A stretch of DNA of 61,995 nt, filler included, from Actinomycetota bacterium (GCA_046725875.1; 3 parts of 3 records of this genome joined end to end with filler, not necessarily neighbours in it), one strand, 5' to 3'. Counted from the first letter of the whole stretch, positions 53,601 to 59,600 are shown. A program made the numbers.

Positions 53601-56600
53601 TCGAGTATCTGCTCGGCGGTCACGGTCGCCCCGGGATGAGTCGTGTATAGCGCGGTGACCCGCTCTCCCCAGTCGGGGTCGCTCACCCCGACGACGGCCA
53701 CTTCGTGCACTCCCGGCACGGCGGCAATGACGTCCTCGATCTCCCGCGGATAGATGTTGTAGCCCCCTGAGATGATCATGTCGCCCTTGCGGTCGACAAG
53801 GTAGAGGTAGCCGTCATCGTCCAGCTGGCCGAGATCACCCGTGTGCAGCGAGCCGTTGACAACGGTCTTCACATCCTCGCTCGCGCGGCGCCAGTAGCCG
53901 GTCATCACGTGGTCGCCCCGCGTCACCACTTCGCCAACGGTGCCCGGCCCGACGGGCAGTCCCTCGTCGTCGACCACCCAGAGGTCGACGGCAAGGCACG
54001 CCCGGCCGGCCGATGTCAGCAGATCGCTCGCTTGGGATAGGCCGCGCTCGTGGTCGGCCCGGTCGAGCACGGTCACCGGCGGGATCGCCTCGACCAGGCC
54101 GTAATACTGCACGAGGTTTGGCGTGATCCGCTCGTGCGCCTGGCGGATCTGCTCCGGCGCCATGGGCGCTCCTGCGTAGCCGAGCATCTGCAGCCCCCGC
54201 ATCCGATCCGGTGTGCAGTCGGGCCGGGCGAGCAGCCGCGCGACCATGGTCGGGACCAGCGCGGTCGCCGTACCGCCGCGATTCTCGACGGCATCGAGCA
54301 GGGCTTCGGGGTCGTAGTCGGGGAGGATGAGCTGGCGCGCGCCGTAGGCGAGGTAGGGCAGGGTGAACAGCCCGCTGGTATGCGTCACCGGGCCGGCGTG
54401 CACCCACACGTCGTCCTCGTCTGGGCGAATGGGGAGGATATCGGTGATCATGTTCCGCAGACTGGCCAACCGGTTGCGGTGGGTGCGCTTGGCCCCCTTC
54501 GGCCGGCCGGTCGTGCCGGAGGAGTAGTTCAGCGACACCAGGTCGTCAGCGCTTCCGGTTGGGCGGGGAAGCCGGCCGCCGGCGGTTGCCAACTTCTCGT
54601 ACGGGACGCCGGGCCCGTCGCCGATCACGAGCACGTGACGCGTGCCGGCGCGCAGGTCCTCGGTCTGCTCGGCAAAGCGGGCGTCGTAGATCAGGGCGCT
54701 GGCCGCGCAGTCTTGGGCAATGTACGCCCAGTCCTCCGGGCGCAGCCGGTAGTTGAGCGCCACTCGTACGAGACCAGTGCAGGCCAGGGCGAGGTCCGTC
54801 TCGACGTAGCTGACCTGATTGGTCTGCAGGTCGAGCACGCGATCGCCGGGCTGGAGGCCGAGCCGGTGCAGGCCGGCCGCGACAGCGCCGATCCGCTGGC
54901 CGAGCTCGGCGAATGTTCGCGTCCCACCCGGTCCCTCCAGCGCGATCCGGTCACCGTAGCGGCGGACCGCCCGGGCGATGACGTCACCCACCTGCATCTC
55001 GTGTGCCCTCCATCCACCATCATCGTGGCAGCCGGCCGCAGCGTGAGCCTGTGCAGTCCCGGACGAGCACCAAATGGTGAAATGACCCACGCTTTCAAAC
55101 GGTGTGCGCGCCACTAGTACAGGCGACCGGGCGAGGGCGAATCGCCGGGCATCTTCGCTGCGCAGCGTGACCATCCGTTGGACGCGTGAGCCACGCCGTG
55201 CCGCGCGACTTCCGAATGTGGGTGTGCGTGCCCGAGGACCGACAACCACGCCGTGGCGCTCGGCCGCGGCATCCCGACCCGGTCCTCGACCGTACGGCGC
55301 GGAATCTGCCGCCGGTGTGCCCATGCTTCCACGCAGCGATCATTCCTTGGCATCTGCGCGCACGAACAGCCCTCGCGTGATCAACCCCTGGCATTATGGC
55401 GGCACCCAGCAGCCCGAGTGGATCATTCCGCGGCATTGCTGCAGGAGTTTGATCACCCTTTGGATCGGAGCGTGGCATCTCTGCAGCACGAAATCGACGA
55501 TTCCTTCAGGCAGAACTGCCAACCCTTGATCCAACAGGTGATCAACTTGCGGCAGCAGTGCCTCACTCTGATCGTCATCAAATCCAGGGTGATGCACCGC
55601 TGCCACGACCTGATCGGCGGGTGAAGCGCCCCAGCGCATTGACGTTCCGAATATAGGAGACCAGCTGGCTGCCCGCCGACAGCGGACGGATGACCACTTC
55701 GGTGACGCCCAGGTACTCCGTTGGGCTTGATTGCCAGCGCCGAGCACCGGCCGGGGAGCCGCAGTCGACCGGATCAGATGTGGGGTGGATCATGGAGCCT
55801 TGAAGTGCAACCGCTGTGGGCAGGCCGGGGTTCTGAGGGTGTGATGACTGAAGCGGCTCCTGCGGGGGGCAAGCCCCCCGCATACCCCCCGTTCCAGGCT
55901 GCGGTTCTGGCGGCCCCTGCGTTCCAGGCTGCGGGCGGCAAGCATCCCTACCCCCCGTTCGAAGCCGCCGAGGGAGGCATTCTCGATGCGTACTCGGCCT
56001 CACCGGGGGTGGATGCCGATGATCGCGGCATTGCGGCCGAGCACGAGGACGACGTCCGGCGGGCGCTCGTCCTCGACCTCGACGGCGGGTTCGTCGCGCT
56101 CTACGACGCCTACCAAGGCGTGGTCTTCTCCGTAGCCCTTCGGCTGTGCGGTCGCTGGGCGGACGCGGAGGACCTGAGCGCCGAGGCGTTTCTGCGTGCC
56201 TACCGTGCGCTGGCCGGCTATCCAATGGATCGCTTGGCAGTGCTGCGGCCGCGATCTTGGTTGGTCACGATTCTGCTCAACGTGTGGCGAAACAGCCGCC
56301 GGGCCGCGGGCCGGCGGACCCGCTCGGCCCCGCTCGACCATGCTCCGGAACCGGCCGACCCGAACGCGGACGTAGAACGGGCGGTCGAACGAGCCGAGAC
56401 CGAGAGGGAGCTGGCCGGGCTGTTGCGCGAGCTGCCCGAGGCCCAGCGGATCGCGGTGGTCTTGCGGCACGTGGTCGACCTGTCTATCGCGGAGATCGCG
56501 GACGTGCTCGACCGACCGGAAGGAACCGTGAAGTCGCACATCTCGCGCGGCCTGACCCGGCTGCGCGAGCTCCAGGCCAAGCAACACGAGGTGTCCAATG

Positions 56601-59600
56601 ACTGATGAACTGCTCACCATCGAGCTCGGGGCGCTTGCCACCGACGCCCCGTCCGGACTGCTCGACCGAGTCGCCGCTCGCTGGGTTCAGGTGCCCGGTC
56701 CGATCGGGGAGCTGTACGTGGCCACGACCGACCAGGGAATCGCGTACGTACACATGGAGCCGTCAGTAGGCGACGACACGACCTTCGCGGCCTCCTTCCG
56801 GAAGCGATTCGGCCGCCCGCTGCTCCCAGCGAGCCGCCCGCCGGCCGGACTCACCACCGCACTTCGAACGGGGAATGCCGCCGGGCTGCGATTCGACCTG
56901 CGTGGGTCGACCGAGTTCGACCAGGCGGTCCTACGGTCAGCATTGACGATTCCGCGCGGAGAGATCCGGCCGTACTCCTGGATCGCTCGGGAGATTGGCC
57001 GCCCGCGTGCGGTGCGCGCGGTCGGGTCGGCGCTTGCCCGCAACCCGGTGCCTGTCCTGATCCCCTGCCACCGGATCACCCGCGCCGACGGGACGATCGG
57101 AGACTACGTCTTCGGGTCGCCGGTCAAGGAGTCGCTCCTGCGCGCCGAGCACGTGAACCTGGACGACATGCGGGAGCTTGCTCGCTCCGGCGCCTACTTC
57201 GTCGGCAGCGACACGACCGGCATCTTCTGCTTCCCGACCTGCCCGAACGGCCGCCGCATCACGCTCCGGCACCGGCATGACTTCCGCACCGTCGACGAAG
57301 CCGTGGCGGCGGGCTACCGGCCGTGCCGGCACTGCCGACCCGCCGAGGCGGCGTCGTGAGCCGCCTGACAGCGGATCTCTTCCTGGCGGTTCGACTGAGG
57401 TGTTCCCGCACGCCAACCCGGCAGATGTGCGGCCCTTCAGTCAGACATATCGCCTGAGCGGGCCGCCTCATGCGCGGAGAGTAGCCTGCTGTCCGAGGAG
57501 TACGAGCTAAGCAGGAGGACGGATGGCTTCCGCCAAACCGGAGTCCGAGAGCGTCAACCCGCGACCCGCAGGCGCCGCGAAGTTGCAGTCGGCCGACGCG
57601 AAATCGCGATCCGCCGTGCGCGAGAAGCCGCAGTCGGCCGACGCGAAATCGCGATCCGCGGTGCGCGAGAAGCCGCAGTCGGCCGGCGCGAAAACGCGAT
57701 CCGCGGTGCGCGAGAAGCCGCAGTCGGCCGACGCGAAAACGCGATCCGCCGTGCGCGAGAAGCCGCAGTCGACCGACGCGAAAACGCGATCCGCGGTGCG
57801 CGAGAAGCCGCAGTCGACCGGCGCGAAAACGCGATCCGCGGTGCGCGAGAAGCCGCAGTCGGCCGGCGCGAAAAAGCCATCCGCAACGCGCGAGACGCCG
57901 CGGCCGGGGGTGGCCCCGAAGGCAGAGTCAAAGGCCGCGCCGGTTGAGAGCGTCGAGGTAAAGGGCGCCGGCGAGGAAGCGAAGCAGAAGTTCCGGGAGG
58001 CGCTCGAACGCAAGCGCAATCAGCAGGGGGACCACGGCACCGGTTTTGCCGGCCCCGACTCGTCCAAGATCCATGGTGCCCAGGGGCCGGCCTTCAGCCG
58101 GCGTACCTTCCGCCGCAAAGCCGGTAGCTAACCCCGACCCGGCAGGTCCGGTCATCTGACAACACAATGGGATCGTGACGGACATCGCGGATGCTGCGCC
58201 CGGCGGGAGGTCTGGAGAAGTCATTCCCCCGGAAAGCGCGGCCGGCAGGCGCGGAGCCGCAGTCCCGACAGAGGGAACGGCCGGCCGGCGCGGAGCCGCA
58301 GTCCCGACAGAGGAAACAGCCGGCCGGTCCGCAGCCGCAGTTCCAGGGGATGGGACGGCCGACAGGTCCGGAGATGTTCTTGCTCCGCTGAGCGCCCCCG
58401 ATCGGCCGCTGGCAGGTAGGCCGCACCAGTCGCTTCTTGACATGCCTGGGCCGCGCGCGAACCCGTTCGTCGGGATGGCGATGGAGTTCCGCCGCGGAGT
58501 ACTCCAGACGCTACTGCGCGGGTTCCACGAGTACGGGGATCTCGTCGCGTACCGCTTCGGGCCGGCGCGCGGACCGAGGCGTCAGTTCGGCGTCGCGGCG
58601 CACCATCCGGACTTGGTCCGGCAGGTGTTGATCGAGAGCGAGCGCAGCTACGGCAAGGACACCGTTGGATTCCAGATCCTCTCCGACATGCTCGGCCGCG
58701 GGCTGTTGACGACCGAGGGTGAGGTGTGGCGCCGGCAGCGCCGTACCCTCGCGCCTCTATTCACCCCGCGTCGAGTCGCGCTTTACGCGGACTTGATGCA
58801 GGACGAGGCGAACCGGGTTGTCGATGACTCGCAGCACGACAGCGCGAGGCTGCGAGCCGACACGTCGGCGGCTGCGGGGAACGCCGACCCGGTGGACCTG
58901 CATCTGCTGATGATGCGTTACACGCTCCGGGTCGTGGGGCGCGCGCTCTTCGGCGAAGACGTCGATGAGGCGATTCCCGCGCTACACCGGCTGGTTCCGC
59001 TGGCCGGCCGGCTGACCCAGCAGCGCACGCTGCAATTCGTCAGGTTTCCGCTCGACTGGCGTACCCCCCGTAACAAGCGCACGCAGAGGGTGCGAGCGGA
59101 GCAGTACCAGATCGTCGATCGCATCCTCGCCAGGCACACCACCAACGTTGCCGACGGCGAGGATCTCGTGACCCGTCTGCAGGCCGTGCGCGACCCGGAA
59201 ACCGGTGAGCCGTTGTCCGAGGCGGAGATTCGAGACCAAGTCCTGGTGTTCCTGCTTGCCGGACACGAAACAACGGCAGGGGCGCTTACCTTCACACTGC
59301 ACCTGCTCGGCAGTCACCCCGAGCTGCAGGACACGGCGGCCGGGGACGGCGCGCTGCAGCGCGCCTCGCTGCTCGAAGGCATGCGACTCTTCCCGCCGGC
59401 CTACCTCACCGAGCGGCTGACGACGACAGACACCGAGATCGGCGGGTACGCGATTCCACGTGGCACGCTGGTCGTTGTTTCGCCGTGGGTGACGCACCGG
59501 CACCCGGCCTTCTGGCCGCAGCCCGAGCGCTTCGATCCGTACCGCTTCCTCGGAGAGCACGACCGGCCGCGATACTCGTACTTCCCCTTCGGCGGTGGCC

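Follow-up and report, generated by a model that had tools for sequence, protein, structure and literature searches.

A translationally coupled ECF sigma factor and Ogt-Ada(Zn) fusion protein: a putative sigma/anti-sigma pair for the sensing of DNA alkylation

Why should a protein that repairs alkylated DNA be encoded together with an alternative sigma factor, and what keeps that sigma factor in check? The question is raised by two overlapping genes in a window of 61,995 nt (the whole stretch of DNA that was analysed, three parts joined with filler) from an Actinomycetota bacterium (GCA_046725875.1). The most likely answer is that they form a two-gene unit of an alternative sigma factor and a DNA-alkylation repair protein, in which the latter also restrains the sigma factor.

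A sigma factor gene and a repair gene behind one promoter

The upstream gene (55844..56605; all features given here lie on the plus strand) encodes a protein of 253 aa when read from the ATG at 55844, with a GTG at 55841 as an alternative start. Pfam recognises Sigma70_r2 (2e-13; region 2, ~56099-56317) and Sigma70_r4_2 (2.4e-16; region 4, ~56408-56563), and the score against NCBIfam TIGR02937 is 79.7 bits for a cut-off of 42.9; having regions 2 and 4 only, and scoring above the threshold curated for the family, the protein is an ECF (group 4) sigma-70 factor. Its Pro/Ala-rich N-terminal extension of ~75 aa (55844..56068) is uncertain as coding sequence; it is missing in the closest relatives, is not conserved in the alignment and has a GC3 of 0.71 against 0.85 in the core; no Pfam match was found within it. 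The sigma frame ends in a TGA at 56603-56605 and the ATG of the downstream gene (56598..57359, 253 aa) lies at 56598, an overlap of 8 nt (56598..56605, ATGACTGA) that implies translational coupling. Among relatives, 49 of 66 sigma/fusion pairs overlap by 4 nt, a count biased toward small gaps by taking the start codon nearest to the sigma stop.

The downstream product, a presumed anti-sigma factor and repair protein, is ordered as N-terminal helices, MGMT N-lobe, MGMT DNA-binding/active-site domain, and Ada-type zinc domain. PF01035 covers residues 106-186 (1.8e-26; 56913..57155) and PF02805, the Ada-type Cys4 domain, residues 196-248 (1.4e-12; 57183..57341), and the PDB matches are 1sfe (E=1.6e-19) and 1adn (E=7.1e-8). 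The acceptor Cys157 (codon 57066-57068) lies inside a PCHR motif, while alignment to N-Ada (1adn) equates C211, C215, C243 and C246 with Cys38, Cys42, Cys69 and Cys72, Cys211 (codon 57228-57230) thus corresponding to the methylphosphotriester acceptor. None of these residues varies among the aligned fusions (35 of 35), and the same is true of H158, R159, Y126, R140, N149, Y170 and E184. By an offset to human AGT derived from the PDB match, the invariant residues include what we take to be the Tyr, Arg-finger, Asn-hinge and Glu-His network positions, which together with the PCHR acceptor Cys mark the protein as Ogt/MGMT. The intact residues suggest an active suicide alkyl acceptor, proposed to work through Cys157, which is of the Ogt type, as well as through the zinc-bound Cys211 of the Ada type. 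The 3.76-Mb assembly (89% complete) holds one PF02805 match and three PF01035 matches; the genome also has genes for an ordinary Ogt, on contig C152, and for an ATL-like PWWR protein, on contig C174. Stand-alone Ogt/MGMT and ATL proteins have the MGMT fold and PCHR active site in common with the fusion, and differ in having no N-terminal helices, zinc domain or sigma partner.

Ahead of the pair lies a putative autoregulatory ECF-type promoter (55806..55832), with a -35 element TGCAACC at 55806-55812 and a -10 element GGGGTT at 55827-55832, the family consensus being YGCAACC-N15-GTGTT(Y). Of 67 regions upstream of the sigma gene, 49 contain the pattern CAAC[CT]-N13-16-GNGTT, the site in the window being 55807-55832, and the other 18 have no motif; the remainder of the same loci gives 15 matches in 1.19 Mb (0.006 per 450 nt). 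The spacer is 15 nt in every match, a G stands at -1, outside the search pattern, in 49 of 49 promoter sites, and the sigma start codon follows the -10 element by 8-11 nt (9-10 nt in Actinomycetota and Chloroflexota relatives). The operon is proposed to be self-contained and positively autoregulated. In its anatomy the preliminary description of this locus stands: the 8-nt overlap, the Ogt-type PCHR domain with a C-terminal Ada-type Cys4 domain, the five invariant cysteines, the zinc domain unique in the assembly and the conserved promoter were all recovered, as were the same two PDB structures, with other E-values.

Relatives with and without the zinc domain

An adjoining sigma gene lies upstream in 66 of 76 genome loci. 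One of the ten remaining loci has no upstream DNA, and the other nine, from Poribacteria and Dehalococcoidia, match query residues 35-191 only (eight of them beginning at query residue 97 or 99) and have neither the N-terminal helices nor the zinc domain. The sigma factor is present for 55 of 55 downstream proteins with both Pfam domains, and among the 57 metagenome loci whose upstream DNA is long enough, 56 have it next to the gene. The sigma-fusion family reaches Acidobacteriota, Chloroflexota, Dormibacterota and Eremiobacterota, and no flanking gene cluster common to the different phyla was found.

Among 117 representatives whose N-terminal part is complete, 34 have kept the N-terminal helices but have no zinc domain, and four Eremiobacterota loci that lack it are still sigma-coupled. 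The zinc domain is thus optional, and the sensor common to the sigma-coupled relatives would be the MGMT body. Nor is the zinc fusion alone in being coupled to the sigma factor: MGMT-only relatives retaining the N-terminal extension also have it. The preliminary description had called the two-gene module strictly conserved and held that MGMT-only relatives lack the sigma factor; both statements need this correction.

Other relatives bear a canonical zf-HC2 anti-sigma domain on the same MGMT(+Zn) body, at the place where the fusion of the window has its N-terminal helices. An N-terminal HxxxCxxC motif followed by MGMT is found in 12 of the top 150 representatives, of which seven reach the Pfam cut-off for zf-HC2 (PF13490) and 11 also match Ada_Zn_binding. 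On metagenome contigs, 18 such genes have 650 nt or more of DNA upstream, and an ECF sigma gene precedes 17 of them. The MGMT-only partners of the Eremiobacterota match RsiW (5wuq_C, E=0.018) and RsrA (E=0.0054), and reach 4.4e-7 against the NCBIfam anti-sigma model NF052375, below its cut-off.

The N-terminal helices and the predicted complex

The fusion has ~26 extra N-terminal residues that ordinary Ogt proteins lack, as do the Ogt products of the putative regulon described below, and in a model of the complex these residues sit between sigma domains 2 and 4. Residues 2-26 (56601..56675) form two short helices (H3-12 and H21-25) and are predicted to be a reduced anti-sigma domain that binds sigma regions 2 and 4. 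The predicted interface joins sigma residues 79-124 and 183-244 to fusion residues 2-26, 64, 68 and 72-76; it includes the invariant or near-invariant A17, P18 and R73 of the fusion (A17 and P18 being nearly invariant in the family) and F83 of the sigma factor, and leaves the zinc domain outside.

Binding of the two proteins, which the preliminary description had left to be checked, is supported by this model, with an ipSAE of 0.80 in three of three runs and 0.27 for the best control; among solved complexes 116 of 157 attain this mark, and among mismatched pairs 2 of 215, a rough calibration since our own alignments were used. The pLDDT of the partner is 89 (the stated floor being at least 88), and at least 93% of the contacts are common to the runs. 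The control scoring 0.27, in which the fusion was retained and the sigma factor swapped, yet gave 59 confident contacts. The score is the model's own confidence, and since solved sigma/anti-sigma complexes exist, the pass may come in part from likeness to them. The fusion of the window has no HxxxCxxC motif, the feature of the ZAS/zf-HC2 class, nor does Pfam match anything within residues 1-40. Its N-terminus is weakly linked to the zf-HC2-type domain (hhalign probability 21%, E=0.001), residues 2-26 aligning with the end of that domain in the relatives.

Control of the sigma factor

What has been computed comprises the anatomy, the intact catalytic and zinc residues, the coupling, the conserved promoter, the predicted interface and the anti-sigma-domain homologues. 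The best explanation, which we hold to be probable, is a sigma/anti-sigma pair whose cytoplasmic anti-sigma factor is a suicide alkyl acceptor, such that damage would be sensed through the consumption of the repair protein. Control is here inferred to be inhibitory: the helices of the fusion (residues 2-26) and part of the MGMT N-lobe (~F63, R73) would insert themselves between regions 2 and 4 of the sigma factor and hold it away from RNA polymerase. The releasing signal would be alkylation itself, in that alkylated DNA would irreversibly alkylate the fusion, and the spent protein would lose its grip on the sigma factor, either by destabilisation and proteolysis or by a conformational or DNA-binding change. 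Any route from an alkylated Cys157 or Cys211 to the N-terminal helices would be hypothetical; the zinc domain lies outside the predicted interface. The freed sigma factor would transcribe from YGCAACC-N15-GTGTT promoters, giving fresh repair protein and more sigma factor, and in relatives would also activate other genes of defence against alkylation and electrophiles. Control of the sigma factor by the fusion had been suggested before; the complex model and the zf-HC2 homologues favour this part of the earlier proposal, in which the zinc domain has to be taken as optional.

A putative regulon is present in relatives. The promoter pattern is enriched in carriers, with 18 matches against 2 for reversed-pattern controls in five genomes and 178 against 47 in 50 carrier genomes, and 26 of 67 examined non-own sites lie directly 5' of six recurrent families: DUF1203 (7), the epoxide hydrolase EHN (6), stand-alone MGMT (4), the arginase family (4), DinB_2 (3) and the PF09859 oxygenase (2). 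The sites examined were our own choice, 54 being among the 150 matches listed, beside which 28 further matches exist. The evidence for this regulon is almost entirely from a single phylum, the Acidobacteriota; one PF09859 oxygenase site is from Actinomadura, 9 kb from the sigma gene. A motif search of the present genome found no regulon beyond the operon itself, the strict motif occurring seven times for ~5 expected by our own estimate, which is chance level, and the best extra match lying inside a glycosyltransferase ORF; the absence of a regulon noted earlier thus applies to this genome and not to its relatives.

Methylated Ada activates by contacting RNA polymerase, and one may ask whether the fusion is likewise a positive partner, methylation of Cys211 leading to tighter DNA binding that aids the sigma-RNA polymerase holoenzyme at the promoter. 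The Ada-type zinc domain with all four ligands, the equivalence of Cys211 with Cys38 and the presence of the MGMT DNA-binding domain would suit such a role, but we consider it improbable: Pfam finds no AraC-type HTH in the protein, an alignment of 48 promoters has no conserved box 5' of the -35 element, the predicted contact between regions 2 and 4 is the inhibitory mode of anti-sigma factors and does not involve the zinc domain, and close relatives retain the sigma factor without that domain or bear the inhibitor-type zf-HC2 domain instead. An anti-sigma factor might also sense something other than DNA alkylation, with electrophiles or oxidants acting on zinc-bound or active-site cysteines as in an RsrA-like ZAS protein and DNA repair being secondary. 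ZAS-type relatives, the weak similarity to RsrA and a putative regulon that goes beyond DNA repair, with many members of electrophile-detoxification families (epoxide hydrolase, DinB_2), are in keeping with this, yet the MGMT set of Tyr126, Arg140, Asn149, Cys157, His158 and Glu184 is invariant across phyla, stand-alone Ogt and the PF09859 oxygenase also belong to the putative regulon, and the protein of the window has no ZAS motif, all of which makes a different signal distinctly unlikely.

The fusion could, finally, be a target only, a repair enzyme with two functions that shares a transcript with a sigma factor, the latter being governed by something else, such as a transcriptional repressor (as proposed for ECF203), by the sigma N-terminal extension or by promoter competition. 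A plain enzyme would have the same fully intact catalytic residues, the 75-aa extension of the window's sigma factor is unusual, and TetR control, without autoregulation, has been suggested for ECF203 in Casas-Pastor 2021 (PMC7826278) and in a 2022 review (PMC8999054). Neither in the window nor in the Actinomadura flanks does a TetR gene adjoin the module, however, and the lack of conservation of the sigma extension, like that of a flanking cluster shared by the phyla, speaks against such regulators, while the binding supported by the complex model, the zf-HC2 domains on the same protein body and an N-terminal extension specific to the family render a mere target unlikely.

How, then, does the proposed sigma/anti-sigma pair compare with known systems? 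In the Casas-Pastor 2021 (PMC7826278) supplement, ECF122 has MGMT at +1 and ECF203 has MGMT in that same position, with a value of 1.22 per ECF for Ada_Zn_binding, confirming the earlier suspicion that this source might list the Ada domain; the review (PMC8999054) gives ECF122 an 'unknown mechanism'. Both groups resemble the module in an Actinobacteria ECF sigma factor with an O6-methylguanine methyltransferase at +1 and no recognised anti-sigma factor, and the Ada_Zn_binding context of ECF203 is found here as well. ECF203 as there described lacks a conserved target promoter and has TetR, HTH and MFS genes as conserved neighbours, whereas the module has a sharply conserved promoter, an AMP-binding ligase, DUF5302 and a P450 as neighbours in the window, and no MFS gene there or in the Actinomadura flanks. 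As for ECF122, which the preliminary description had also brought up, the promoter predicted for that group, CTCAC (-35) and CGTCTAC (-10), differs from GCAACC (-35) and G(T/G)GTT (-10) in the window and the relatives.

In Escherichia coli Ada (1adn, 1sfe, 1u8b), as in the fusion, a single polypeptide joins a Cys4 zinc domain for the acceptance of methylphosphotriester groups, with Cys38 or its equivalent, to an O6-alkylguanine transferase domain, and its gene belongs to an autoregulated unit. In the fusion, however, the domain order is reversed, the AraC-type HTH is absent, the score against the NCBIfam Ada equivalog NF011964 is 110.8 bits for a cut-off of 345, and promoter recognition is handed to a separate ECF sigma factor; the logic, release of a sequestered sigma factor, is likely to be unlike Ada's direct activation. 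With class I ZAS/zf-HC2 anti-sigma factors (RsiW-SigW, 5wuq; RsrA-SigR) the fusion shares a translationally coupled gene directly 3' of an ECF sigma gene and a predicted contact with both sigma regions, and it has relatives with bona fide zf-HC2. It differs from them in its two helices of only ~26 residues and in a sensor part that would be a DNA-repair suicide enzyme in place of a membrane, redox or protease-controlled module. The sigma-MGMT link itself is already catalogued (ECF122, ECF203; Casas-Pastor 2021), without a mechanism; new are the N-terminal helices modelled between the sigma domains, the zf-HC2 relatives, the zinc-less relatives that are still sigma-coupled, and the occurrence of the promoter at further genes.

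Operon anatomy and conserved chemistry of the fusion protein

The sigma gene (55844-56605, plus strand, TGA stop at 56603-56605) encodes sigma-70 regions 2 and 4, recognized by Pfam as Sigma70_r2 and Sigma70_r4_2, and its assignment to the ECF superfamily lies above the NCBIfam cut-off. The gene for the fusion protein (56598-57359, plus strand) begins at an ATG at 56598 and thus overlaps the sigma ORF by 8 nt; its 253-aa product carries PF01035 (MGMT) at residues 106-186, followed by PF02805 (the Ada zinc domain) at residues 196-248. Among NCBIfam models the fusion matches the generic Ogt superfamily only, its score for the Ada equivalog being far under the cut-off, and in the PDB its sequence is matched best by Ada-C (1sfe, E=1.6e-19) and by N-Ada (1adn, E=7.1e-8). 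Across the assembly (3.76 Mb in 197 contigs, 89% complete) there is a single match to PF02805 and there are three to PF01035. The other two PF01035 proteins are an ordinary Ogt with ACHR replacing PCHR (C152:2553-3152, locus L084), whose gene is overlapped by the end of another, of 739 aa and by eye resembling a UvrD-type helicase, and an ATL-like protein with PWWR replacing PCHR (C174:1701-2264, locus L085).

The neighbours of the operon in the window are genes for an AMP-binding ligase, a DUF5302 repeat protein and a P450. The DUF5302 gene (57523-58131, plus strand) is the next gene after the operon, and no terminator-like site was found between it and the fusion gene; the N-terminal part of its product is built from a tandem repeat of 45 nt (15 aa) in seven copies (57585-57901, 94% matches). 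No RNA data set was listed for the locus; the one run listed is of soil metagenome DNA, with a 0.05 share of words. The window covers at least two assembly contigs (C103 at 17842-43823 and C104 from 43924), and synteny over the 43823/43924 junction is meaningless.

An alignment of 35 fusions from several phyla was used to assess residue conservation. The PCHR residues Cys157, His158 and Arg159 are invariant, as are Tyr126, Arg140, Asn149, Tyr170 and Glu184, the N-lobe residues F63 and R73 of the MGMT domain, and the block R124-G134 save for K/R at 131. The offset between Cys157 and human Cys145 in the PDB alignment places the five residues from Tyr126 to Glu184 at human positions Tyr114, Arg128, Asn137, Tyr158 and Glu172. 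All four zinc cysteines (C211, C215, C243 and C246), which align with Ada Cys38, 42, 69 and 72, are likewise invariant. Because the catalytic and zinc residues are invariant, both sites of the fusion appear, from its sequence, to be functional in accepting alkyl groups. Ada-C aligns with the fusion from residue 25 on, and at the N terminus the family is longer by about 25-35 residues, which contain a conserved A-P-x-x-L-L motif; there was no Pfam match in residues 1-40.

Coupling to the sigma factor and a shared promoter

In a synteny set of 76 loci, taken from contigs of one genome per species, a homologous sigma gene lies directly upstream in 66. Ten loci are without it: L021 has no upstream DNA, and the other nine, all from Poribacteria or Dehalococcoidia, are matches within query residues 35-191, eight of them beginning at residue 97 or 99. 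Both Pfam domains are present in 55 of the 66 sigma-coupled downstream proteins; among the remaining 11, three are cut by contig ends, four are matches that end inside the zinc domain and are read as frame breaks, and four, from Eremiobacterota, are genuinely devoid of the domain. The two genes overlap by 4 nt in 49 of the 66 pairs, a count that is biased upwards by choosing the start nearest the sigma stop. Judging by the depositors' record titles, the carriers belong to Acidobacteriota (the majority), Actinomycetota, Chloroflexota, Dormibacterota and Eremiobacterota, with one MAG labelled Proteobacteria. When all flanking ORFs were clustered, no cluster common to different phyla was found, the top 40 clusters being confined to Acidobacteriota. 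Metagenome contigs gave a similar picture of sigma coupling, with an adjoining sigma gene in 56 of 57 loci that have at least 650 nt of upstream DNA, among them 17 of 18 loci whose alkyltransferase carries an HxxxCxxC motif. One locus, L032, comes from a genome flagged as unpublished (G029) and is counted among the 66 loci, the 49 promoter sites described below and the rows of three alignments (A1, A2 and A4); dropping it shifts each count by one and leaves the conclusions unaffected.

In two Acidobacteriota MAG loci, L016 and L061, the sigma and the MGMT-zinc protein are read in a single open frame. As L061 contains out-of-frame stretches, and L016 reads about 20 residues beyond the usual sigma end, assembly indels are the likelier explanation for both, and neither was retained as evidence of a sigma fusion; L016 may be a true sigma/anti-sigma fusion.

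The pattern CAAC[CT]-N13-16-GNGTT occurs in 49 of 67 upstream regions (48 loci and the window, where the site lies before the sigma gene at 55807-55832), against a background of 15 matches in 1.19 Mb, both strands, of the remainder of the same loci. The spacer is 15 nt in every match, and positions outside the search pattern are also fixed, with G at -1 and T or C at -2 in 49/49 sites. No conserved box was seen upstream of the -35 element. Since the first in-frame start in Actinomycetota and Chloroflexota relatives lies 9-10 nt after the -10 element, the spacing suggests a leaderless transcript in these lineages; in most Acidobacteriota the start is about 20 nt past the -10 element and a GGAG-like stretch is present. 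In the window, a GTG at 55841 and the ATG at 55844 are 8 and 11 nt past the -10 element. The sigma ORF opens here with a Pro/Ala-rich stretch of 75 aa (55844-56068) that contains internal direct repeats, has no Pfam match, is absent in close relatives, and has a GC3 of 0.71 versus 0.85 in the sigma core. The lower GC3 makes the true sigma start uncertain, and the stretch could be either a lineage-specific extension or a long leader.

Indications of an anti-sigma role

Prediction of a complex between the sigma and the fusion, with our own alignments, gave a score of 0.80 in 3/3 runs, the best control reaching 0.27; of 157 solved complexes 116 reach this mark, as do 2 of 215 mismatched pairs, a calibration that is only rough here as our own alignments were used. 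The partner pLDDT is 89, for a stated floor of at least 88, and no fewer than 93% of contacts are common to the runs. On the sigma side the confidently predicted interface comprises residues 79-124 (region 2) and 183-244 (region 4), and on the side of the fusion residues 2-26, 64, 68 and 72-76, the AF2 model having helices at residues 3-12 and 21-25 of the fusion, and this arrangement is the geometry that anti-sigma factors of class I have. The high score may derive in part from likeness to solved sigma/anti-sigma complexes.

A second line of evidence comes from the N-terminal regions of homologues. The four Eremiobacterota MGMT-only partners begin with an HxxxCxxC segment that matches RsiW (5wuq_C, E=0.018), RsrA (0.0054) and the NCBIfam anti-sigma model NF052375 (4.4e-7, under the cut-off). 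A search of 1.84 billion representatives yielded 191 relatives at E<=1e-30. Among the best 150 of the 191, 117 have the full N-terminal part, 70 of these 117 with the Cys4 motif and 34 MGMT-only with short tails; some of the MGMT-only set are close relatives (58-68% identity) in which the N-terminal helices are retained. The same 150 include 12 with an N-terminal HxxxCxxC motif followed by MGMT, of which 11 also match Ada_Zn_binding (Pfam) and seven reach the Pfam threshold for zf-HC2. With hhalign, residues 6-28 of the window's fusion align weakly with the last part of the Eremiobacterota domain (probability 21%, E=0.001). Taken with the modelled interface, these sequences suggest a family of anti-sigma factors in which the N-terminal domain varies between the full zf-HC2 type and two helices, the zinc domain being optional. 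The latter lies outside the predicted sigma interface, and relatives dispense with it; probably it broadens the input to methylphosphotriesters instead of acting as the switch.

Candidate regulon and proposed switch

In carriers, GCAACC-N15-GKGTT is more frequent than its reversed control, with 18 versus 2 matches in 5 genomes and 178 versus 47 in 50 genomes. Apart from the operons' own promoters, 67 sites were examined, namely 13 from the 5-genome set and 54 chosen from 150 of the 178 matches listed; the chosen sites mostly have a GTGTT -10 element, and one proved to be a sigma promoter. Several families recur behind these 67 sites, their genes beginning a few to about 40 nt downstream: DUF1203 (7 sites, plus one frame-broken look-alike for which no Pfam scan was made), epoxide hydrolase (EHN; 6), stand-alone MGMT (4), the arginase family (4), DinB_2 (3) and the PF09859 2OG oxygenase (2, one in Acidobacteriota and one in Actinomadura 9 kb from its sigma), and these counts are inflated by relatedness, as all the sites so counted save the Actinomadura case are from Acidobacteriota. 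Within a family the spacers vary and both promoter elements are kept. Two small uncharacterised families also stand behind the motif in Acidobacteriota, one of about 100-113 aa (L105, L117 and L154, with a weak ABM match in one) and one of about 122-135 aa with no Pfam match (L128 and L152).

Contig C20 of the Actinomadura genome (G001) has a pair of identical 26-nt promoter sites on one strand, 3.1 kb from each other (L094 and L099). One stands before the PF09859 oxygenase, and the other comes after a 289-aa ORF and is not followed by a clear gene; on this contig an MFS transporter also has such a site before it. Among the matches listed, the promoter-like match GCAACCGA.CC..TGTC.TTCGTGTT occurs in about nine Acidobacteriota genomes (L092, L096 and similar), coinciding in the two loci examined with the beginning of an ORF for an EamA-matching product, and GCAACCGTCGTGAAGACCTT.GTGTT recurs in four Acidobacteriota genomes; each may be an internal promoter or part of a conserved coding sequence.

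For the genome of the window, the scans turned up no promoter of this type besides that of the operon itself. The strict pattern has 7 matches versus about 5 expected from our composition estimate, and the best extra match was discarded, being internal to a 686-aa glycosyltransferase ORF. A position-matrix scan gave no good site before the six EHN genes or the other MGMT genes, and the assembly, at its 89% completeness, contains neither PF09859 nor PF06718. With strict matches near chance and no good sites before candidates, a regulon in this genome was set aside.

The most economical reading is that of a sigma/anti-sigma pair for which self-alkylation of the anti-sigma factor is the input. 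Control of the sigma by the fusion would be inhibitory, and alkylation would free the sigma, either through unfolding and proteolysis of the fusion or through a change in its DNA binding, giving an adaptive response that replenishes what it uses up. In its full form, which we advance tentatively and rate somewhat below an even chance, the proposal is that a suicide repair enzyme serves as the anti-sigma factor, such that a single irreversible alkyl transfer to its own cysteine would remove a lesion and at the same time release one sigma molecule. The response would be stoichiometric and self-replenishing, a sigma/anti-sigma design that is independent of Ada in its construction; it would extend to five or more phyla, in some of which it would govern a wider alkylation/epoxide regulon that includes the uncharacterised DUF1203.

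The sigma-MGMT association itself is already known. In the ECF classification of Casas-Pastor et al. (2021, PMC7826278), ECF122 is an actinobacterial group with MGMT at +1, no anti-sigma factor and a CTCAC/CGTCTAC promoter; ECF203, also actinobacterial with MGMT at +1, has Ada_Zn_binding at 1.22 per ECF, TetR/HTH/MFS neighbours and no conserved promoter, and is said there to lack ‘any obvious regulator’ and perhaps to be TetR-controlled. A 2022 review (PMC8999054) places ECF122 under an unknown mechanism and says that MGMT and other proteins ‘could be involved’ in the control of this group. Our literature search met ECF122 and ECF203 by name only in these two papers, and a search for MGMT, Ada or alkyltransferase as an anti-sigma factor returned nothing relevant; neither the anti-sigma reading, backed by an interface and zf-HC2 homologues, nor the promoter shared across phyla, nor the regulon was found in the literature searched.

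If the proposal is true, the +1 MGMT protein would be the missing anti-sigma factor for ECF122 and ECF203, groups listed without a known regulator, and there would be functional leads open to testing for a number of epoxide hydrolases as well as for DUF1203 and PF09859. With its sharp promoter, the compact pair could also find use as an orthogonal biosensor for alkylation. Sigma/anti-sigma signalling would gain a new sensing principle, in which a suicide enzyme is consumed, and bacteria without an AraC-type Ada would exemplify a second, independent path to an adaptive response to alkylation.
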